The notes beneath the pieces are model-generated. The model made no database searches. It was given only the letters and a program-made list of their open reading frames with translations, and was not told the origin of the DNA. A stretch of 64,000 bases of DNA, taken from NCBI GenBank assembly GCA_963712745.1, contig CAVQJC010000017.1, positions 256,001-320,000 of the forward strand. The letters are read 5' to 3'. A program made the position numbers and the translations under genes. How positions within the stretch are numbered: the stretch's first letter is position 1; each line of letters starts with the position of its first letter. Source of the DNA: an uncultured Chloroflexia bacterium. Its GTDB lineage: Bacteria > Chloroflexota > Limnocylindria > Limnocylindrales > CSP1-4. Below, piece after piece: positions 35,995 to 46,742 of this stretch.

Positions 35995-36759
35995 TCAGGG
36001 CCTGGTGACGATGACCTCTGCAGCGCCCGCGTTATTGGACTTGATGGCTTCGGGCGAGGTGGTCGAGGCCGTCACCTTCAGCGACACCGTACCCTCGTCG
36101 CCGATGGGCAGGCCGCAATCCTGGAGGTACGAGGTGGCCTCGAACTCGCCCGACTCCAGCGTGCCTAGGACCTCGACGCCTGTCGGGTCGTCGGCACCGC
36201 GACACGTGACTCCGGTCTCGTCCCAGGTGATGTCGACCTTCACCCCCGCGGCATCCTTGGGGCCGATGTTCTTGACCCTCCAGGTGATATCGAACATGGG
36301 CTCCGGGCCAGCCTGACCGACCACGCTGGAGGTGGAGGCACGCACGATTACCTTCAGGTCTGCGCCTTCACAGCCGGACTTCAGGGCGCCGTCGGCGCCG
36401 CCGTAGCAGGCGTCCTTGTCCTTGCCACCGAAGAGCTTGTCGAAGCCGCCGTCGCCCTTGAGGATGTCCTTGCCGGCGTTCCCGAAGATGCGGTCGCGGC
36501 CGTCGCCGCCGAGGACCACGTCGTTGCCGTTGCCGGCGCAGATGATGTCGTTGCCGCCCAGGCCGAGGATCTTGTCCCGGCCGCCCTTGGCCACGATGAC
36601 GTCCCGCCCGGGCGTGCCCTTGATGTAGTTGGCCTTGTCGTTGCCCACGATGGTGGCAGGTATGCCAGCGCACTTGGGTGGACCGGCGCTGACTGAAGTG
36701 GCTGCTGCCGGTAGCGCCAGCAGGGCGAACGTGATCGCGGTCACGACGATTCGCTTCAT
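35995..36759 (-). CDS. Secreted protein with RTX/hemolysin-type Ca-binding repeats and a DUF11/CARDB Ig-like domain
   Basis: Signal peptide; GGRDKI/GGNDII/GNDVV/GGFDKL nonapeptides; ADLKV...VKNIGP...SNNA. Confidence 0.8.
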   Translation of the reverse strand: MKRIVVTAITFALLALPAAATSVSAGPPKCAGIPATIVGNDKANYIKGTPGRDVIVAKGGRDKILGLGGNDIICAGNGNDVVLGGDGRDRIFGNAGKDILKGDGGFDKLFGGKDKDACYGGADGALKSGCEGADLKVIVRASTSSVVGQAGPEPMFDITWRVKNIGPKDAAGVKVDITWDETGVTCRGADDPTGVEVLGTLESGEFEATSYLQDCGLPIGDEGTVSLKVTASTTSPEAIKSNNAGAAEVIVTRP

Positions 36760-36843
36760 GATCCCCTCTCGATCAGTGCAGACGGTCGAGCCTAGGCGTC
36801 CTCCAGCCGCTCGTCCACCCTCTCCCGCGATACGCTGGTGCGG

Positions 36844-38235
36844 ATGTCCACCACTGGAACGGGACCGCGGGCCCGTGTCTCCGCCTGGCTCCGTCGATGG
36901 CGTCCGCTGCTGCCCCTGTTCGGGGCCGAGCTCATCGTGCTCATCGGCTTCGGGGCGCTGCTGCCGGTGCTGCCGCTCTACATCGAGGAGCACGGCATCG
37001 ACCCGACCGGGCTGGGCATCATCGTCGCGGGCTGGGCCCTGGCCAAGCTCATCTTCGAGCCGCTCTGGGGCTGGTGGGCCGACCGGCACTCGCGCAAGCC
37101 GCAGATGGTGGTAGCCCTGATCGGGCTCGGCGTGGTCAGCATCCTGCCGCTGTTCTTCACGACCTTCGTGGCCTTCTTCCTAGCGCGCTTCCTGGCCGGC
37201 TTTGCGGCCGCGGCCTATGACCCCGCGGCCCGCGGCATGGTCGTCGACGCCACGGCCGAGAACAAGCGCGGAGAGGCCTTCGGCTACTACGGCGCGTTCC
37301 AGATCGCCGGCTTCGTCATCGGCCCGGCCATCGGCGGCCTCGGCGCCACCATCTTCGGCACCTACACCTTCCCCTTCGTCTTCACCTCGCTGCTCTCGCT
37401 GGTCGGTGCCTTCGTACTCATGCGCTACCTGGCCCCGACGCCCAGCGCCGTGCGTGACGAGGAGCCCGCGCTCCGGCTGGCGCCCCAGCCCGGCTCCGGG
37501 CCTGAGGTGACGCCCGAGTCACGACCCCTGACCGATTCCATGGCCCGTCCGCTGCCGGCGGGAGATCCATTCACCGCGTCGGAGACGCTCGTCGTTCCGG
37601 CCGACGCGTCCGAGTCAGTGACGCCGGCGCCGCTCTCGGCGCTCTTCAACCGCACCGTCATCGCCGCCCTGGTCCTGACGTTCGGGCTGCACCTCTCCTT
37701 CGGCACGTACGAGGTGGTGTGGTCGTACTACTTGATCGCGCTGGGCGCCACCGTGGCCTGGGTCAGCCTCACGTTCGTGCTGTTCGGCATCCCCGAGATG
37801 CTCATCGGGCCGTACGCAGGACGCATCGTGGACCGGCGCGGGCCCGTGGGCCTGGTCATCGGCAGCGGCCTGGTCATCATCGTCGCGGGCAGCATCTACG
37901 CGAGCGCTTCGTACTTCCTGGTCCCCTCGATCTACCTCGTGCCGACGATCGTGGTGCCCTTCGAGGCAGCGGCCACGGCCGCCATGATGCCTGCGCTGTA
38001 CGCCATGCTGGCACGCGGCACGCCACAGGGCCGCGCTTCTACGACCCAGGGCATCTTCGGTGCCATGAGCACGCTGGCGCTGGTGGTGGCGTCGGTCGTC
38101 GCGGGCGCGCTCTTCGAGCGGGGCATCGGCCTGCCGTTCTGGTTCTTCGTGGGCGGCATCATCGTCTGTCTCGTGCTCGGCCTGGCCATCTACCGCAGCG
38201 CCGGGCGAGACCCTGCCGCTGCCACGAGCGCATAG
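36844..38235 (+). CDS. MFS transporter (DHA1/TetA-like)
   Basis: GWWADRHSRK motif A, ARFLAG, GPAIGG, 12 TM segments. Confidence 0.9.
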   Translation: MSTTGTGPRARVSAWLRRWRPLLPLFGAELIVLIGFGALLPVLPLYIEEHGIDPTGLGIIVAGWALAKLIFEPLWGWWADRHSRKPQMVVALIGLGVVSILPLFFTTFVAFFLARFLAGFAAAAYDPAARGMVVDATAENKRGEAFGYYGAFQIAGFVIGPAIGGLGATIFGTYTFPFVFTSLLSLVGAFVLMRYLAPTPSAVRDEEPALRLAPQPGSGPEVTPESRPLTDSMARPLPAGDPFTASETLVVPADASESVTPAPLSALFNRTVIAALVLTFGLHLSFGTYEVVWSYYLIALGATVAWVSLTFVLFGIPEMLIGPYAGRIVDRRGPVGLVIGSGLVIIVAGSIYASASYFLVPSIYLVPTIVVPFEAAATAAMMPALYAMLARGTPQGRASTTQGIFGAMSTLALVVASVVAGALFERGIGLPFWFFVGGIIVCLVLGLAIYRSAGRDPAAATSA

Positions 38236-38692: not shown

Positions 38693-39145
38693 CCACAGAC
38701 GTCTCCTCGGCGGCACCGCTGGCCGCCGCTCAAGCGGAGCCCGTCCGGCCTTCTCCGGACGGGCTCACTCCACCTCTTCGCCCGCGGGGCACTCCCCAGT
38801 TACGCCCGCCCGCCCGCGGCCCGCCCCAGTTGCGCCCACCCCAGGCCCCGCGCTGCGGGCACGGCCAGTCACTGGCCCTGCCCTGTGGGCACGGCCAGTC
38901 CCGGGAGTGAGTCCTCGGCAGACTCCAACAGGCAGGCATCGCCCAGGCCCGCCAAGCCGGGCCCGTGGCTGCAGCCGTTCGAGTCCAAGGCAGACTCAGA
39001 ACGACCGCGCACACGCCGAATCGAGTCGGCTCCGAACTGAGGACGGCCAGACTGGCGCCGTTGTCCGAGCTGGCCTCACCGTGGGCGTCCACGGCGGACT
39101 CGGCGGCCCTGCACCGCATGCGACTCATGCCCAACCGTGCGATCG

Positions 39146-39335
39146 GCCGTTCGCCATGCCGCGGACGCCTGTGCCGTTCGCCATGCCGCGGACGCCTGTG
39201 CCGTTCGCCATGCCGCGGACGCCTGTGCCGTTCGCCATGCCGCGGACGCCTGTGCCGTTCGCCATGCCGCGGACGCCTGTGCCGTTCGCCATGCCGCGGA
39301 CGCCTGTGCCGTTCGCCATGCCGCGGACGCCTGTG
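39146..39335. repeat. Tandem repeat, 27-bp unit x7
   Basis: gccgttcgccatgccgcggacgcctgt, identical copies. Confidence 0.97.
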
Positions 39336-39606
39336 TGGACCAGGAAGACCAACCCGGGCCGCAGGCTGGAGGGCCTCGCGCGCCGGTTCAGTCACCACGG
39401 ACTCAGCGGTCCGTCGAGTCGGCGTTCCGAGTCCCTCATGACTCGGATGGCGCTTGGCAGAGAGACTGGGGTAGAGCGGGCACCTCTTCGCGGTCCTTGT
39501 AGTCCTGGCCGGCATAGCGTTCCGGGCGCCGCGGCAACCCAGGACCGGACAGCCACGCCCGGCGCCACAGCCACGCCCGGCGCCAAGACGGCAACCCCGC
39601 CAAACG

Positions 39607-40428
39607 CTAGATCGTCTGGTTGGCCAGCTCCAACTGATGGACCGTGCGCCGCTGCAGCGCGTCGAGCCGCGCGGGGCCCAGCACCTCGCAGGCCCAGTCC
39701 CAGTGCAGCGCGACGACGTCACCGGGCGAGACATCGGAGACGAATCCTGTCCCGTCCAGCCAGCGCCGGACCGTCTGCACCTTCGGCTCCGCCAGCGCCA
39801 GTTTCCCGTCCTCCAGCCCCAGTGGCACCGCGTTCACCACCAGCGACTCTCCCGCGACCTCCATCACCCGCCCCCAGCGGATGCGGCAGGAATCCATGAG
39901 CCCGATCGCATCGGTCACCGCACCGCCGCGCATCAGTCCCACCCGCGGGAAGACGTCGAAGACGTGGAAGGCATGTGTCGGCCGTGCCCCCGCCTCCGGC
40001 TTGCCCTCGAGCCACTTCCAGGCTTCGGGCAGCAGTTGCGAGCGGAAACGCGTGTCCATCGAACGGGTCATGAGCCCCGGGTCCACGCTGTCGGAGAAGG
40101 CACTGCCGATCCAGTAGGCGTCAACAACGCGCAGATCCATGGGGTCATCGATGCCGTGGGCTGAAGCGATGAGCTCCAGGTAGGGATAGGCGCCCTCGAA
40201 GCCGGCTGCCAGGTCGCGCAGGCCGTGGTCGATCTCCAACGCCTGGGCCTGGCTGGGCCCGCTCGCCGAAGCACCGCCGGACGCGGCCGCGCCCAGCTCC
40301 AGCAGGGAGCGCCAGTCCTCCGGGCCACACAGGCCCAGGCGGTTGGGGCCGAAGGCGTAACGGGCGAAGAGCACGGGGCCCGTGGGCGTCGGGCGTGCGC
40401 TGGTGTCGGGAGGAGCGGGGAGGTTCAT
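39607..40428 (-). CDS. DUF6390-family protein with HypC-like C-terminal domain
   Basis: LFARYAFGPNRLGLCGP, FEGAYPYLELIA, VVDAYWIG, PTHAFHV, CRIRWGRV, GDVVALHWDWAC. Confidence 0.8.
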   Translation of the reverse strand: MNLPAPPDTSARPTPTGPVLFARYAFGPNRLGLCGPEDWRSLLELGAAASGGASASGPSQAQALEIDHGLRDLAAGFEGAYPYLELIASAHGIDDPMDLRVVDAYWIGSAFSDSVDPGLMTRSMDTRFRSQLLPEAWKWLEGKPEAGARPTHAFHVFDVFPRVGLMRGGAVTDAIGLMDSCRIRWGRVMEVAGESLVVNAVPLGLEDGKLALAEPKVQTVRRWLDGTGFVSDVSPGDVVALHWDWACEVLGPARLDALQRRTVHQLELANQTI

Positions 40429-40802
40429 CGGTAGCGGCACGTGGTGCGACTCAGCCGGTCGGCTCGGCGACTCCGCGCCGGAGCCTCGACCGTCGCCGGA
40501 GCCTCGACCGTCGCCGGAGCCTCGACCGTCGCCGGAGCCTCGACCGTCGCCGGAGCCTCGACCGTCGCCGGAGCCTCGACCTCGGGTCCAGGACCCATGA
40601 GGATGCTGAATGCGCGCGACATCTCTGCGGCCTGGTCCTCGTCGAGCTTGCGTACGACGGTGCCGCTGTTGACCAGCACCCAGTCGCCCACGACCAGGTC
40701 CGGCTCGAGCATCATCGAGGCCTTGTCCACGCGACCTCCGACCTCCACCTCGCACAGGCTGCCGTCGACGGCCACGACTCGCGCGGGGGCCATCAGGCAC
40801 AT
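40425..40802 (-). CDS. hypC: HypC/HupF-family hydrogenase chaperone with VEAPAT repeat tail
   Basis: MCLMAPARVV...VGDWVLVNSG...LDEDQAAE; 18-bp repeat at 40476-40581. Confidence 0.85.
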   Translation of the reverse strand: MCLMAPARVVAVDGSLCEVEVGGRVDKASMMLEPDLVVGDWVLVNSGTVVRKLDEDQAAEMSRAFSILMGPGPEVEAPATVEAPATVEAPATVEAPATVEAPATVEAPARSRRADRLSRTTCRYR

Positions 40803-41125
40803 GGCGCCACCTCGTGACAGACGACCGCGGGTCCGGGCACCTGCGGCAGGGGCGCACCGCAGTGGCCACACTGCGGGTGGGACGGCGAAGCGGTCGTGGC
40901 CAGCTCCCCGCACAGCTCGCAGTGCACGTCGTTCGTCTGCACCGTGAACGTGGTCGAGGGGTAGCCGTGTTGGGCCAGGATGGCAGAAGCGTAGAAGGCC
41001 ACGGCGCCAGCTTCTGCCCGCGTGGCATCGCGGATCTCCAGCTCCAGCTGGCCTCCACATCCCGACTTGGGCCAGCCGGCGATGACCTTCTCGATAGCGC
41101 CGCCGACGGCTCCTGCCTCATGCAT
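40793..41125 (-). CDS. hypA: Hydrogenase nickel metallochaperone HypA
   Basis: MHE N-terminus, CELC...CGHC. Confidence 0.85.
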   Translation of the reverse strand: MHEAGAVGGAIEKVIAGWPKSGCGGQLELEIRDATRAEAGAVAFYASAILAQHGYPSTTFTVQTNDVHCELCGELATTASPSHPQCGHCGAPLPQVPGPAVVCHEVAPCA

Positions 41126-41326: not shown

Positions 41327-41809
41327 ATGACCGACTTCGCCACGTTGGCCTCCGGGATCAGCGCCACGTGGTTCGGCTCCGGGCTGTCGGAGGGCTCCGT
41401 GGAGCGCCTCGCCGGCATGGCCCGTGAGTACGAAACACCGGCTCGGGCGCGCCTTCTCCGGGAGGGCGACGAAACCAAGGAGCTCAGCGTCCTCGTCGAG
41501 GGACGCGTGGCATTGACCGAGCACGTCGCCGGGCGTGGCTCGGTCACCCTCATGACCGTCGAACCGGGCGACGTGTTCGGCTGGTCCGCACTCATCAACC
41601 CCTACAAGGCCACCTCTACGGTGGTCAGCCTGGAGCCCGTGAAGGTCCTCGCCTTCGACGCGGCTGCCCTCCGCGACGAGGTCCGCTCCAACTGCGAGCT
41701 GGCCGCGGGCATCTATCCCAGGCTCCTCGAGGCGCTGGCTCGCCGGCTCGGTGCCACGCGCCACCAGCTGCTCGACCTCTACGGGTCCGAACAGCGCGAA
41801 TCCTGGTAG
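41327..41809 (+). CDS. Stand-alone cyclic-nucleotide-binding domain protein
   Basis: LLREGD...VEGRV...PGDVFGWSAL...ATSTV; no C-terminal HTH. Confidence 0.85.
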   Translation: MTDFATLASGISATWFGSGLSEGSVERLAGMAREYETPARARLLREGDETKELSVLVEGRVALTEHVAGRGSVTLMTVEPGDVFGWSALINPYKATSTVVSLEPVKVLAFDAAALRDEVRSNCELAAGIYPRLLEALARRLGATRHQLLDLYGSEQRESW

Positions 41810-41897: not shown

Positions 41898-43874
41898 GTG
41901 ATCGATCTGACCACAAGGGCGTGGCTCGCCCGCGAAGACCTTGACCGCCTCATCGCGCTGCTGCGCGAGGACGGCCGCAAGGTCGTCGGGCCCACGGTGC
42001 AGGACTCGGCCATCGTCTACGACGAGATCGGGTCCACGGCCGACCTGCCCACGGGCATCACCGACGAGCAGGCGCCGGGCCGCTACCGGCTGGAGCGCGA
42101 CACGAACGACAGCTCTGAACGGTCGTTCGACTTTGCCTCCTCGCCCATGTCGTGGAAGTCGTTCACCTATCCCGCTTCCGTGCCCCTCGCCCGCGCCCAT
42201 CGCGACGGCGACGCGCTGACCTACGACCACATCAAGCATGACGCCCCGCGCATGGCCTACCTCGGCGTCCGCGCCTGCGACCTGGCTGCCCTCGACATCC
42301 ACGACGACGTGCTTGCCGGCGGGCCCTATATCGACGAGGACTACGCCGACCGCCGGGGCAAGGCTTTCATCGTGGCAGTCCAGTGCGCGCGCCCGGCGAG
42401 CACCTGCTTCTGCGCTTCGATGGGCACCGGTCCGGAGGTGAGCACCGGCTTCGATGTCGCCCTCATCGAACTCGACGAGGGCTATGTGGCCAGGGCCGGC
42501 AGTGAGGCCGGCCAGGATCTGCTTGAGCAGCTCGAGTTGGGCGAGGCCACGTCGATCCAGATGCACGCGGCGGCCGGCGTGGGCGTGGAGTCCCGCGCCC
42601 GCATGAGCGAACAGCTCGGAGTGCACACCGAGGGCCTACGCGACCGGCTCATGAAACAGCTCGAAGCGAAGGGCTGGGACGATATCGCCGAGCGCTGCCT
42701 GGCCTGCACCAACTGCACCATGGCCTGCCCCACCTGCTTCTGCACTGACGTCCGCCAGACGTCCGACCTGGCCGGTACCGAGACGACGAGCGAGCGCCAG
42801 TGGGCCAGCTGCTTCACGCTCGACTTCGCGCGCGTTGCCCACGGCAACTTCCGACCTCGCGTGCGCGACCGCTACCGCCAGTGGCTGACCCACAAGTTCA
42901 GTACCTGGGTCGACCAGTTCGGAACCTTCGGCTGCGTCGGCTGCGGCCGCTGCATCACCTGGTGCCCGGTGGGCATCGATGTGCGCAAGTCGCTGCTGGC
43001 CGTGGCCCCGATGAAGCCGTCGCTGGCCGGGACTGAGAAGCCGGTGCCGGTCTCGGCCAACCCCGGTCGCTACTCGATCGGCACCATCGCCGACGTCTGG
43101 GCAGAGAACAGGAACGTCTACACCATGACCCTCACTGACCTGCCCGAGGCGGTCTGCTCCGGCACGCCGGGCCAGTTCCTGATGCTCGATCTGCCGGGCT
43201 TCAGTGCCGTGCCCATCTCGGTCTCGCGCTACCGGGAAGGCGAGGTCTACCTCACCATCCGCACCGAGGGTGCGACCACGCGCGCGATCACCGCCCTGCG
43301 CCCCGGCTCCCAGCTGGGGTTGCGCGGTCCGGTCGGGCGTGGTTGGCCCATCGAGGAGGCCTTCGGCCGCGATGTCGTCATCGTGGCCGGGGGGATCGGG
43401 CTGCCCCCTCTCCGGCCCCTCATCGACGAGATCCTCAAGTCACGCGGCCACTTCGGGCGGGTGCGCCTGTTCTACGGCGCCCGCACCCCCAACGATCTGC
43501 TCTTCACCGAGGAGTTGAAGGCCTGGGGTGCACGCCAGGACATCAGCGTGGGCGTGACCGTCGACCGCGCCCAGGTGGGCACCTGGGCGGGCGCGGTGGG
43601 CGTGGTCACCCAGCTCTTCGACCGCGAGCCCATGGACGGCAGCCACACCACGGCCTTTATCTGCGGCCCCCAGACGATGATGTCGGCCACGGCCAACTCG
43701 CTAGCCGGCCGGGGCATCCTGCCCGAGCGCATCTTCCTCTCGATGGAGCGGCACATGCAGTGCGGCATCGGACTCTGTGGGCACTGCCAGATGGGCCAGA
43801 ACTTCGTGTGCAAGGACGGGCCGGTGTTCTCCCGCAGAGAACTGGGTGAATCGCTGGACGTGGAGGGTCTGTGA
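41898..43874 (+). CDS. Fused group 3b hydrogenase beta (4Fe-4S, AsrA-like) and gamma (FAD/NAD(P)-binding, AsrB-like) subunits
   Basis: [35 protein letters not shown]; then [36 protein letters not shown]; RBS aaggagg. Confidence 0.9.
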
Positions 43875-44728
43875 TGGCGGCCGACGGGAACAAGGCCCCG
43901 CGCGTGGGGGTCGTCAAGCTCGCCTCGTGTGACGGCTGCCAGCTGGGCTTCCTGGACCTGGGGCCGGCGCTGCTCGACATCGGCGCCACCTACCACATCG
44001 TGGAGTTCGCAGAGGCCTCGTCGAGCCGCGCGCCTGACGGGCCCTTCGACATCCTCTTCGTGGAGGGCTCGGTCTCGACCGTCGAGCAGGCCCGCCACAT
44101 CCGCCGCCTGCGTGAGCGGGCCGCGGTGCTCGTGACCATCGGTGCCTGCGCCACCAGCGGCGGCATCCAGGCCCTGCGGGCCTGGGCCGGCAACGACGGT
44201 GGCATCGCCGGCTTCGTGGACGCCGTCTACGCCACACCCGAGTACATCTCCACGCTGGAGCGGGCGCAGCCGGTGGCCGACTTCGTCGAGGTCGACGCCG
44301 AGCTGCGGGGTTGCCCCATCGACACCGGCCAGCTGGTGGAGCTGCTCACGGCCACGGCCATCGGCCGCCGGCCGCAGCTGTCCTCCGAAGCGGTGTGTGT
44401 GGAGTGCAAGCGTGCAGGCCGGGTGTGCGTGATGGTCGCGCGCGGCGAACCCTGCCTGGGCCCCATCATCTCAAGTGGCTGCAACGCGCTCTGCCCGGGC
44501 ATGGCACGCGGCTGCTACGGCTGCTTCGGCCCGCGCGAGAGCGCCAACGGGGCCTCGCTCTCAGGTTGGTTCGGCGACTCGCTGGAGCTGCCTGACGAGC
44601 AGGTCGCCGCCAAGTTCGCCGTCTTCACGGCCTGGGCGCCGGAGTTGCGCGAGGTCATCGAGGCGAGGGGAGGGCCGCCCGGCATGCGTGCCGACAAGGC
44701 TCAGAGCGGCGAAGGAGGTGCGGCATGA
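43874..44728 (+). CDS. [NiFe] hydrogenase small (delta) subunit, group 3b
   Basis: SCDGCQ, GACATSGG, RGCP, VCVEC...PCLGP...CNALCP...CYGC. Confidence 0.92.
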   Translation: MAADGNKAPRVGVVKLASCDGCQLGFLDLGPALLDIGATYHIVEFAEASSSRAPDGPFDILFVEGSVSTVEQARHIRRLRERAAVLVTIGACATSGGIQALRAWAGNDGGIAGFVDAVYATPEYISTLERAQPVADFVEVDAELRGCPIDTGQLVELLTATAIGRRPQLSSEAVCVECKRAGRVCVMVARGEPCLGPIISSGCNALCPGMARGCYGCFGPRESANGASLSGWFGDSLELPDEQVAAKFAVFTAWAPELREVIEARGGPPGMRADKAQSGEGGAA

Positions 44729-46053
44729 CCCGCGTGAAGGCGACCGAGACGATCTCGGTGCCCGAGGAGCGCACCTTCGCGGTCGATTCGATGTCCCGGG
44801 TCGAAGGCGAGGGTCGGCTCAAGGTGGTGGTCAGGGGCGACGAGGTCGTCTCGGCCGAGCTCTCGATCTTCGAAGCTCCGCGCTTCTTCGAGCGGCTGGT
44901 GGTGGGCCGGGAGCCCGACCAGGTCATCGACATGGTCGCCCGCATCTGCGGCATCTGCCCGGTGGCCTACCAGATGACCGCGGCAGAAAGCTTCGAGCGG
45001 CTCTTCGGGGTGGAGCTCGATCCATCGGTGCGAGCGCTGCGGCGGCTGTTCTACTGGGGCGAGTGGCTGCAGAGCCACGCCCTGCACGTCTACCTGCTAA
45101 ACGCGCCCGACTTCCTCGGTTACGACAGCGCCATCGACATGGCCCGCGACCACCGCAAGATCGTGGAGCGGGGCCTGGCTCTCAAGCAGGCCGGCGTCGA
45201 CATCATGGCCCTCATCGGTGGTCGGTCGGTCCATCCGGTCGGCATGCGCGTGGGCGGCTTCTATCGAGTGCCCTCGAAGTCCAAGCTGCGGGCCATGCTG
45301 CCGGGGCTCGAGACGGCCCTGGCCCAGGCGCAGGAGACGGTGCACTGGACGGCCTCGTTCGAACTGCCCGACTTCGAGCGCGATCCGCTCATGCTCTCGA
45401 TGTACGACCCGGAGTTGTACGCCCTCGACACCGGCCGGCTGGTCACCACCGAGGGCCTCGACGTCGATCCCGGCGAATGGGACTCGGCCTTCACCGAGCA
45501 GCATGTCGAGCACTCCACCGCGCTGCAGGCCACCAGCCTCGATGGCAAGCACCATCTGCTGGGCCCGGCCTCACGTGTCGTGCTATCCGGCCAGGGCCTG
45601 CACCCGCTGGCCAAGGCCGCGCTGGAGGAGGCCGGCGGCGAAGAGACGATCCGCCGCAACATGTTCGCGGCCATCACCGCGCGTGGCGTGGAGATGGTGC
45701 ACGCCGCCGCGGAGGCCATGGCCATCGTCGAGGCCTGGGAGCCGCCGACGGACCCGTACGTGGAGTGGGAGCCACGGTCGGGCGTCGCCTCGTGGGCCAC
45801 CGAGGCGCCGCGTGGCGTGCTCTTCCACCGCTACGATGTGGACGAGGACGGGCGCGTGACCAAGGCGCGCATCGTGCCGCCGACCTCGCAGAACCAGGCC
45901 TTCATGGAGGACGACATGCGCGAGTTCGTGCCCTCGGTCCTCGACCTGCCCGAGCCGGAGGCCGCGGCCAGGCTGGAGGCGCTCATCCGCTGCTATGACC
46001 CCTGCATCAGCTGCGCCACGCACTTCCTGCGCCTGGAGATCGAGCGCGTCTAG
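44725..46053 (+). CDS. [NiFe] hydrogenase large (alpha) subunit, group 3b
   Basis: RVEGEG, L1 RICGICPVAY, EAPRG, L2 YDPCISCATH plus cleavable C-terminal tail. Confidence 0.95.
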   Translation: MTRVKATETISVPEERTFAVDSMSRVEGEGRLKVVVRGDEVVSAELSIFEAPRFFERLVVGREPDQVIDMVARICGICPVAYQMTAAESFERLFGVELDPSVRALRRLFYWGEWLQSHALHVYLLNAPDFLGYDSAIDMARDHRKIVERGLALKQAGVDIMALIGGRSVHPVGMRVGGFYRVPSKSKLRAMLPGLETALAQAQETVHWTASFELPDFERDPLMLSMYDPELYALDTGRLVTTEGLDVDPGEWDSAFTEQHVEHSTALQATSLDGKHHLLGPASRVVLSGQGLHPLAKAALEEAGGEETIRRNMFAAITARGVEMVHAAAEAMAIVEAWEPPTDPYVEWEPRSGVASWATEAPRGVLFHRYDVDEDGRVTKARIVPPTSQNQAFMEDDMREFVPSVLDLPEPEAAARLEALIRCYDPCISCATHFLRLEIERV

Positions 46054-46118: not shown

Positions 46119-46742
46119 GTGACCAGCCGCGTGGTCGTGTTCGCCTGCGGTGATCCCCTGCGGGGCGACGATTCGGTGGCTCATGTGGCCTGCCGGGCGT
46201 TGCCGCCGGAGGCCCTGGCGCGCGTGGACATCAAGCTCGTCGGCGCGCTGCAGCCCGAGTACCTGCGGGACCTGCCGGCGGGGGTGCGCGCGGTCATCGT
46301 CGATGCCGTCGTCGGTCCGTCCCCGGGCCAGATCGTGGAGATGCTGCTCTCGGAGATGAGTGGCCGCGCGGAGTCGGTCATCACCACCTCCACACACCAG
46401 CTGCCGCTCGACGAGGTCGTGGCCCTGGCGCAGCTGCTCCGCGACGAGCCCGTTCAGGGGCGTTTCGTGGGCATGGGCATCGAATTGGTCGAGGTCGGCG
46501 AGCACGTGACGCCGTCGGTGGAGTCGTCCCTGGCCGCCCTCACCGCGGCCGTGGCACGGGCGGTGGCAGAGCTCGACCCCGGCGACAGAGATCGAGCTCG
46601 GGAAGGTCATCGCGTCGGAGGCGTGGGTGCCGGTCCGAGGCCGCTAGCGTCGCCTCCATGCGCCTCGATCAGATCCCCGAGTGCCTCCCAGTCTTCCGCG
46701 TCCACGTCGGCGTCGTCGTCCAGGTCGAGGCGCGGGTCGTAG
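46119..46742 (+). CDS. Hydrogenase maturation protease
   Basis: VVVFACGDPLRGDDSV, IVDA, STHQL; directly downstream of the large subunit. Confidence 0.8.
   Translation: MTSRVVVFACGDPLRGDDSVAHVACRALPPEALARVDIKLVGALQPEYLRDLPAGVRAVIVDAVVGPSPGQIVEMLLSEMSGRAESVITTSTHQLPLDEVVALAQLLRDEPVQGRFVGMGIELVEVGEHVTPSVESSLAALTAAVARAVAELDPGDRDRAREGHRVGGVGAGPRPLASPPCASIRSPSASQSSASTSASSSRSRRGS

Follow-up and report, generated by a model that had tools for sequence, protein, structure and literature searches.

How does a bacterium complete the metal centers of its [NiFe]-hydrogenases when no HypD, HypE or HypF is found in its genome? The question is raised by a 64,000-nucleotide stretch of the assembly GCA_963712745.1 of an uncultured Chloroflexia bacterium (contig CAVQJC010000017.1, positions 256,001 to 320,000; the window hereafter, with a G+C content of about 70 %). 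On its reverse strand a hypA-like gene, a hypC gene and a gene of the family DUF6390 (PF19927) form a series of overlapping genes that faces away from the operon of a group 3b hydrogenase. A prediction made from the DNA letters (the original prediction) had read these genes as an alternative maturation module, in which DUF6390 contains a hidden HypC domain and acts as a metal or cofactor scaffold that takes over part of the HypC/HypD role. No function is recorded for PF19927, and no mention of DUF6390 or PF19927 was found in the literature searched; its similarity to HypC and its link to hydrogenases, mentioned in no source that we found, appear to be new. Our reading as a whole is that DUF6390 is a new maturation protein with a metal site at the HypC/HypD step which stands in for HypD in this organism, and we give it an even chance of being right.

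A HypC-like domain in DUF6390

The DUF6390 gene (39607-40428, reverse strand) encodes 273 amino acids and is a full-length member of PF19927 (262.3 bits, covering positions 3-240 of the 244 in the profile). Nearest to it are copies from genomes titled 'uncultured Chloroflexia' or Candidatus Limnocylindrales. With an alignment of 71 sequences of the family we distinguish an N-terminal domain (residues 1-171; 39916..40428, reverse strand) and a C-terminal, HypC-like domain (residues 172-273 and the stop codon; 39607..39915, reverse strand). In profile-profile comparisons with hhalign, residues 172-273 of the 71 sequences matched a HypC alignment at 97 % (E 8e-11, 63 columns). A second run with the full alignments gave 96 % (E 4.1e-9), the aligned length being 63-64 columns overall, and the C-terminal domain scored 94.2 % against a set of twelve HypC sequences that have the His, of which seven adjoin hypD. 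The negative controls remained below 1 %, with 0.1-0.4 % for the N-terminal domain against HypC and 0.4 % for the C-terminal domain against column-reversed HypC. Twelve of the 71 members match PF01455 individually (best E 5.5e-5), the sole recurrent secondary Pfam family, and a profile search of the PDB with DUF6390 returned HypC chains as the top three of four matches, at marginal E values of 0.042-0.3. In all alignments Cys181 lies over Cys2 of HypC and His242 over the conserved HypC His, with an insertion of ~18 residues between the two in the middle of the domain. Judged by sequence profiles, the C-terminal ~100 residues of DUF6390 are homologous to HypC, with a match to its ~75-residue barrel domain; the hidden domain and its register had been anticipated correctly.

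The single sequences of the window would leave room for a chance resemblance, or for a meaningless HypC remnant in a protein without a role in hydrogenase assembly. BLASTP finds no significant similarity between DUF6390 and the HypC next to it (E 1.0), the C-terminal 97 residues reach only 12.3 bits (E 0.19) against PF01455, below its gathering cut-off of 28.5, and the PDB profile values are marginal. Set against the profile match of 96-97 % with controls below 1 %, the invariant Cys and His at the HypC positions, a linkage to hydrogenase or hyp genes over at least four phyla, and the presence of a large subunit in 77 of 79 DUF6390 genomes of the class versus 47 of 172 genomes without DUF6390, this explanation is hardly credible. 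DUF6390 is nevertheless not filed as a HypC, because the window protein stays below the family cut-off and the aligned Cys is not N-terminal: it stands at residue 181, after 180 other residues, instead of being a free Cys2.

Conservation was read from the same 71-sequence alignment. P28, C34, G35, F77, C181, G236 and H242 are invariant (71/71), and H152, W243 and C247 occur in 90 % or more of the sequences. In the N-terminal domain, C34 belongs to the motif PNxLGYCGP (GLCGP in the window) and the near-invariant H152 and H155 to PHHxFHVF (THAFH in the window); C34 and H152 lie in the two motifs that the original prediction had singled out as further candidate ligands. The C-terminal domain contributes C181 in DxCRIRWG, H242 in GDxVxxHW and the near-invariant C247, H242 being the counterpart of the conserved His in the GDxVxVHxG motif of HypC. 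By its sequence the N-terminal domain is new, and no recurrent Pfam match was obtained for it among the 71 members. Three identities were tried with hhalign and ruled out: a divergent HypD (0.1 % against seven HypD sequences), a large-subunit-like scaffold of the HupK/HoxV kind (0.3 % against the large subunit) and an internal repeat of the C-terminal domain (0.2 %).

The free HypC beside DUF6390 (HypC* in the following; 40425-40802, reverse strand, 125 amino acids) is recognized by PF01455 (63.3 bits) and by TIGR00074 (49.8 bits versus a cut-off of 48). It keeps Cys2 behind the initial Met and carries, as had been noticed before, Asn in place of the conserved His (WVLVNSG). The His is likewise missing from 59 of the 71 distinct HypC sequences that adjoin DUF6390, replaced by Ala, Asn, Gly, Ser or Glu, and present in 12, versus seven of seven distinct sequences that adjoin hypD. 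Cys2 is kept in all 78 free HypC sequences (71 DUF6390-adjacent and 7 hypD-adjacent). The DUF6390-adjacent HypC with His come mainly from records titled Ktedonobacteria/Ktedonobacterales, Acidimicrobiia, Actinomycetes and Dormibacter. The C-terminal tail of HypC*, (EAPATV)x6, is encoded by a perfect 18-bp tandem repeat of 5.9 copies (40476-40581); near relatives have other tails. A contig from an RNA library has small deletions at 40475-40480, so the repeat may vary between strains.

The first gene of the series (40793-41125, reverse strand) encodes a zinc-ribbon protein of 110 amino acids. It overlaps hypC by 10 nucleotides, and hypC overlaps DUF6390 by four (ATGA). The assignment of this gene to hypA is weak: the protein starts with MHE and has two CxxC pairs, which we take to be the HypA nickel motif and the zinc pairs, but its match to PF01155 (16.8 bits, E 0.007) is below the cut-off of 28.9, no NCBIfam HypA model matches, and BLASTP against the canonical HypA of the same genome yields an E value of 0.077. 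We call it hypA-like.

Hydrogenases and hyp genes of the source genome

The source assembly (4.2 Mb, 20 contigs, 84.55 % complete) encodes three [NiFe]-hydrogenase large subunits with intact Cys motifs. One is the group 3b enzyme of the window; the second is encoded on contig C6 (165600-173600) beside a protease of its own and a HypA-like gene, the third on contig C20 (544500-550000), likewise with a separate protease. From their gene order, and without further confirmation, we take the C6 locus to be of the Mvh/Hdr type and the C20 locus of the Hox type, both of group 3.

The genome has one HypC and one DUF6390. As had been stated, the 64 kb contain none of hypB, hypD, hypE and hypF. A search of the whole genome recovered HypB (254.6 bits) paired with a canonical HypA on contig C5 (110268-111262). 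Neither HypD nor HypE was detected with PF01924 and TIGR02124 in this 84.55 %-complete genome, nor a HypF above the cut-off of TIGR00143. Two sub-threshold partial matches, covering profile positions 2-69 and 659-736, were the only traces of a HypF-like enzyme, and this candidate was rejected. Searches by tblastn with a HypD of the same genus and a HypE from a hypD-bearing locus had best E values of ~0.1-1. The canonical HypABCDEF system is incomplete in the source genome for want of HypD, HypE and HypF. HydG, a radical SAM enzyme and candidate source of CN and CO, was also sought here and in four other DUF6390 genomes of good quality (G244, G310, G279 and G113), and was ruled out with no match in five of five; in these four genomes HypB and an over-cut-off HypA were absent as well.

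Distribution of DUF6390 and HypD

Among 37 genomes of the genus, 35 of which encode a large subunit, DUF6390 occurs in 25 and HypD in six, and no genome has both. HypE is found in the same six genomes as HypD, next to hypD and a high-scoring HypC. For the class, 251 genomes of at least 85 % completeness were sampled and their handles cross-tabulated by hand; one common draw lies behind the three class searches, since the per-genus denominators are identical. Of these genomes, 79 encode DUF6390, 44 HypD and 124 a large subunit. The hydrogenase-bearing genomes divide into 77 with DUF6390 only, 44 with HypD only, three with neither and none with both, and in the 127 genomes without a large subunit DUF6390 was found twice and HypD never. 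In this sample of the class, DUF6390 and HypD are mutually exclusive and complementary. Two genera, g1 and g3, include DUF6390-only as well as HypD-only genomes, so that the switch must have happened more than once. Three genomes with neither protein (G010, G237 and the unpublished G278) are a number within expectation for a completeness of 85-95 %.

Fifty further DUF6390 genomes were examined: HypD was absent from 46, HypF was found in three and HypE over the cut-off in four, always together with HypD. Two of the DUF6390 genomes without HypD, HypE and HypF are single-contig chromosomes (G310 and G244, with the loci L038 and L077). Among the HypD-positive genomes listed, hypD clusters with hypE, and within the genus also with hypC, on one contig, single-contig assemblies included. 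The co-occurrence proposed as a check of the original prediction, of DUF6390 with a lack of hypD and with a His-less HypC, was in this way observed. The prediction was to fall if no similarity to HypC emerged, or if a full hyp set came without an association between DUF6390 and hydrogenases, and neither was found. No report of hydrogenase-bearing lineages without hyp genes was found in the literature searched. Passages of a Chloroflexi preprint on the hydrogenase of Limnocylindria do not mention hypC or hypD, and nothing on the question was found for hydrogenase maturation in Thermogemmatispora, passages of PMC6883350 included.

The gene neighbourhood points to hydrogenases as well. At 80 loci from genomes, a HypC is encoded at most ~1.3 kb upstream of DUF6390 in 63 cases, a large subunit within 8 kb in 46 and a protease in 35; a hypA-like gene occurs in only five, all of the clade of the window. 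Commonly, hyhBGSL is followed by the protease, hypC*, a gene of ~1 kb and DUF6390. Among 45 loci from metagenomes that span 6 kb or more, 30 include a large subunit and 19 a HypC. A clustering of the open reading frames of the 80 loci, dominated by spurious GC-rich frames, gave only three families beyond hyh, protease, HypC, EamA and DUF6390, present in 20, 17 and 16 loci and situated in the downstream flanks (L026-L105). Some DUF6390-only genomes (e.g., G283 and G274) encode, close to DUF6390, full-length and high-scoring large subunits that differ from the 3b type of the window; the link is therefore not confined to group 3b.

Proposed role

The data show a homologous domain, conserved residues, a linkage to hydrogenase genes and a characteristic distribution over genomes; from these we infer a metal site, a step in the pathway and a substitution, with decreasing confidence along the way. 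DUF6390 is very probably a [NiFe]-hydrogenase maturation factor. C34, H152 and H155 of the N-terminal domain and C181, H242 and C247 of the HypC-like domain could form one metal site; the cofactor's iron unit would be bound there in the manner of HypC Cys2 and HypD Cys41 in HypCD. The position of the iron unit between C2 of HypC and C41 of HypD is described in a review. By analogy, the fusion of a Cys domain with a HypC domain may mimic this arrangement. DUF6390 would work at the HypC/HypD step and HypC* would shuttle the iron unit to the large subunit. An action in the iron branch is, in our estimation, probable. Where a full hyp set is present, DUF6390 would work beside HypD. In organisms without HypD, HypE and HypF, among them the present one and most of its hydrogenase-bearing relatives, DUF6390 and HypC* would be the remainder of the iron branch and DUF6390 the only visible candidate scaffold; as it would be what is left of that branch, we propose that it stands in for the HypD scaffold. 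For the source genome this substitution is a tentative assignment, to which we give somewhat less than an even chance.

A more far-reaching idea, which we hold to be less likely than not, is a route to the [NiFe] site free of HypD, HypE and HypF. It would depend on HypC* and DUF6390, joined in most lineages by an EamA transporter. Its users might be most hydrogenase-bearing Limnocylindria and members of the Ktedonobacteria, Dormibacterota and Actinomycetota. The iron ligands would then derive from novel chemistry, or the site would differ from Fe(CN)2CO.

Counter-evidence and alternative explanations

Several observations weigh against the proposed role, and the first of them are DUF6390 genes inside canonical hyp operons. 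DUF6390 occurs in 36 of 401 sampled genomes of Actinomycetes. At 20 loci, taken from the 30 best-scoring and not at random, it lies directly beside hypD, accompanied by hypE, in eight (with hypC in three), beside hyhBGSL in seven and beside neither in five. HypD was absent genome-wide from nine of the ten genomes examined out of the twelve in which DUF6390 is not beside hypD. In the genome G103, hypF, hypD, hypE and DUF6390 share a single contig, and both DUF6390 and HypD were present in four of the 50 mixed genomes mentioned above. Two annotated plasmids from cultured bacteria also have DUF6390 in their hyp clusters. On that of Sulfobacillus acidophilus DSM 10332 the order is hypF, hypC, a hypothetical gene, hypD, hypE, tatA and DUF6390, followed by ~0.9 kb without annotation and then by structural genes, protease, hupF, hypA and hypB. 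In Mycobacterium intracellulare it is hypF, hypC, hypC, a SIS gene, hypE, hypC, hypD and DUF6390, which overlaps hypD by four nucleotides. The latter cluster (318343-347050 of NZ_CP012886.2, a mobilizable plasmid of 437 kb) adjoins RuBisCO/cbb genes. DUF6390 thus belongs regularly to canonical hyp operons too, and the family cannot be characterized as an inherent substitute for HypD.

These operons speak for a second explanation, in which DUF6390, as an additional carrier or a chaperone for specificity, does no more than relay or protect an iron unit made by HypCDEF and cannot replace HypD; genomes without HypD, HypE and HypF would then hide the genes on plasmids or unbinned DNA, or use non-homologous enzymes. 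Besides the eight loci next to hypD, the translational coupling to hypD in Mycobacterium and the position after hypE in Sulfobacillus suit a carrier, and so does the unrelatedness of the N-terminal domain to HypD. The residues are the same in both contexts: 14 key residues are all kept in 20 of 20 Actinomycetes copies, and the Sulfobacillus copy and the Mycobacterium copy each retain 13 of the 14. Both annotated clusters are plasmid-borne, and nearly all genomes without HypD, HypE and HypF are metagenome bins, prone to a systematic loss of plasmids. HoxL/HoxV and HupF/HupK of oxygen-tolerant hydrogenases are known from a review as intermediate carriers, which receive Fe(CN)2CO from HypCD before transferring it further. 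The distribution speaks against a mere carrier: both proteins occur together in 0 of 251 class genomes, exactly one of them in 121 of 124 hydrogenase-bearing genomes, and the single-contig chromosomes encode DUF6390 and none of HypD, HypE and HypF. The position of hypD and hypE on one contig in HypD-positive genomes, including single-contig assemblies, would make a plasmid location confined to the DUF6390 lineages an odd coincidence. The N-terminal domain is, moreover, unlike the large subunit (0.3 %), in contrast to HupK and HoxV. We regard the carrier as an unlikely explanation that nevertheless has to be taken seriously.

A further objection to the proposed role is the company that DUF6390 keeps in other lineages, where an EamA transporter (drug/metabolite transporter family, DMT) is its most constant neighbour, encoded directly upstream at 28 of the 45 metagenome loci. 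The gene of ~1 kb between hypC and DUF6390 is a membrane protein at the six genome loci that were read (L033, L036, L038, L077, L087 and L096), identified as EamA by Pfam in two of the six, and a gap of this length is usual across the 80 loci. An EamA gene, at 6821-8008 of L077 and 6880-7986 of L087 for instance, precedes DUF6390 immediately at most of the loci L029-L105 and L182-L241, behind hypC* if there is one. EamA-DUF6390 fusions exist (P0175 and P0391). DUF6390 is fused besides to GntR, PadR, XRE and C-terminal MarR DNA-binding domains (P0127, P0131, P0183, P0163 and P0261) and to a partial HypC. Fusions to PadR and to MarR recur, in clusters of 15 and 17 members, respectively, that are spread over many contigs. 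Seeming helix-turn-helix fusions among the 20 Actinomycetes copies were rejected, their long open frames being an upstream overlap. The fused forms suggest that the DUF6390 module binds something that can be sensed, and the fusions to DNA-binding domains also fit a sensor.

Out of these data a third explanation can be built: a module for a metal or small ligand which, together with EamA, would provide the hydrogenase with nickel, iron or some other metabolite or sense its level, would act as the sensor of a regulator when fused to a DNA-binding domain, and would use its HypC-like part only to dock on the large subunit. Cys and His are typical nickel ligands, and the four good DUF6390 genomes that have neither HypB nor an over-cut-off HypA would be in keeping with it. 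We judge it improbable. The source genome retains HypA, HypB and DUF6390 without an orthologue of that EamA, canonical clusters pair DUF6390 with hypD and hypE and not with hypA and hypB, and the exclusion between DUF6390 and HypD is left unexplained. The sole full PadR-fusion locus recovered (L163:8890-10107) has no hydrogenase within 9 kb; the fused forms may therefore have another function.

The remaining difficulties for DUF6390 as a maturation protein at the HypC/HypD step concern its chemistry and the sampling. Foremost among them, the searches revealed nothing that could supply CN or CO, with HypE and HypF absent and HydG absent from five of five genomes. The N-terminal domain has no detectable homology to HypD (0.1 %), and C34, C181 and C247 are the only conserved Cys of the family, which has nothing like the four-Cys [4Fe-4S] motif of HypD. 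The essential Cys of HypC is N-terminal according to a review, that of the HypC-like domain internal. The genomes counted are related and are not independent observations. Finally, G010, a genome of the same genus at 91 % completeness in three contigs, encodes two large subunits and no HypC, HypD or DUF6390, which points to a gap in the assembly or else to a third situation.

Of the original prediction, the takeover of the HypC/HypD role is partly supported, by the absence of HypD, HypE and HypF and the exclusive distribution in the class; it is weakened by the occurrence in canonical hypFCDE operons and by an N-terminal domain that is not HypD-like. The scaffold idea did not foresee the DNA-binding fusions and left the origin of CN and CO without HypE and HypF unexplained.

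These findings concern a large and environmentally widespread group of bacteria with intact hydrogenase operons, proteases and HypC, without HypD, HypE and HypF, and typically with DUF6390. An uncharacterised family, encoded even in hyp operons of Mycobacterium, gains a testable function, and surveys that use hyp genes to check hydrogenase calls gain a marker for a second maturation set. A route free of HypD, HypE and HypF, if true, would be categorically new and open the question of CO and CN synthesis; fewer genes might then also suffice for hydrogenase production in other hosts.

Hydrogenase operon and other features of the window

In the divergent operon on the forward strand, the first hydrogenase subunit is the fused beta/gamma subunit HyhB-HyhG (41898..43874), which contains the domains Fer4_22, NAD_binding_1 and DHODB_Fe-S_bind. 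The longest open reading frame starts at 41751; a Shine-Dalgarno-like AAGGAGG precedes the start at 41898. The small (delta) subunit HyhS (43871..44728; Oxidored_q6, with matches to the ShyD and HydD models), the large (alpha) subunit HyhL (44725..46053; PF00374) and a hydrogenase maturation endopeptidase (46119..46742; TIGR00072 with 66.6 bits, above the cut-off) follow. HyhL keeps four of four Cys ligands in the motifs RICGICPVAY and DPCISCATH. Its best PDB matches are sulfhydrogenase chains (9nez, 5yxy and 9e15, E 8e-65 to 2e-63), and the operon is assigned to group 3b because the top match of the alpha subunit is the alpha chain of sulfhydrogenase I (9nez, E 8e-65). The best NCBIfam models for the alpha and delta subunits are ShyA-D and HydA/B/D/G, and sulfhydrogenase beta/gamma models are among the matches of the fused protein, all of them under the equivalog cut-offs. 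The overlap of the hypA-like gene, hypC and DUF6390 and their orientation away from a group 3b operon agree with the original description.

Between the two operons, heading that of the hydrogenase, lies a gene for a stand-alone cyclic-nucleotide-binding domain protein of 160 amino acids (41327..41809, forward strand; PF00027, E 1.1e-13), which may be a regulator. Short contigs from an estuary RNA library (X2) are identical to parts of DUF6390, hypC, the hypA-like gene, hyhBG and hyhL; contigs from such libraries are no proof of transcription, and the uncovered parts carry no information. A scan of the window with Rfam detected no RNA family. Just downstream of DUF6390 is a perfect 27-bp repeat of 7.0 copies (39146-39335), with further repeats of 18 bp (2.1 copies, 39549-39585) and 30 bp (1.9 copies, 38844-38900). 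Beyond the repeat region are genes for a protein with RTX calcium-binding repeats (35995-36993, reverse strand) and an MFS transporter (36838-38235, forward strand), for which no link to DUF6390 was seen.

Comparison with known maturation proteins

Three known systems invite comparison. To HypC/HybG/HupF (PF01455, TIGR00074) the likeness is closest: nearly the whole HypC profile is aligned, with the Cys at the first strand and the His in GDxVxxH, and DUF6390 too is encoded in hydrogenase and hyp operons. The differences are the internal position of the Cys, the insertion of ~18 residues, a new domain of 170 residues in front, and a score of the window protein below the family cut-off. With HypD (PF01924) only the proposed role would be shared, that of a Cys-bearing partner which holds the iron unit together with a HypC-type Cys. 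The N-terminal domain of DUF6390 is not homologous to HypD and about half its size, and the family has three conserved Cys only; DUF6390 excludes HypD in the class sample, yet co-occurs and even overlaps with it in other phyla. HoxL/HoxV and HupF/HupK resemble DUF6390 and HypC* in that a second HypC-type module and an extra Cys-bearing scaffold are encoded in the hydrogenase clusters of aerobes. We know of no such carriers in the absence of HypD, HypE and HypF. HoxV and HupK resemble the large subunit, whereas the N-terminal domain of DUF6390 does not, and DUF6390 unites the two parts in a single chain.

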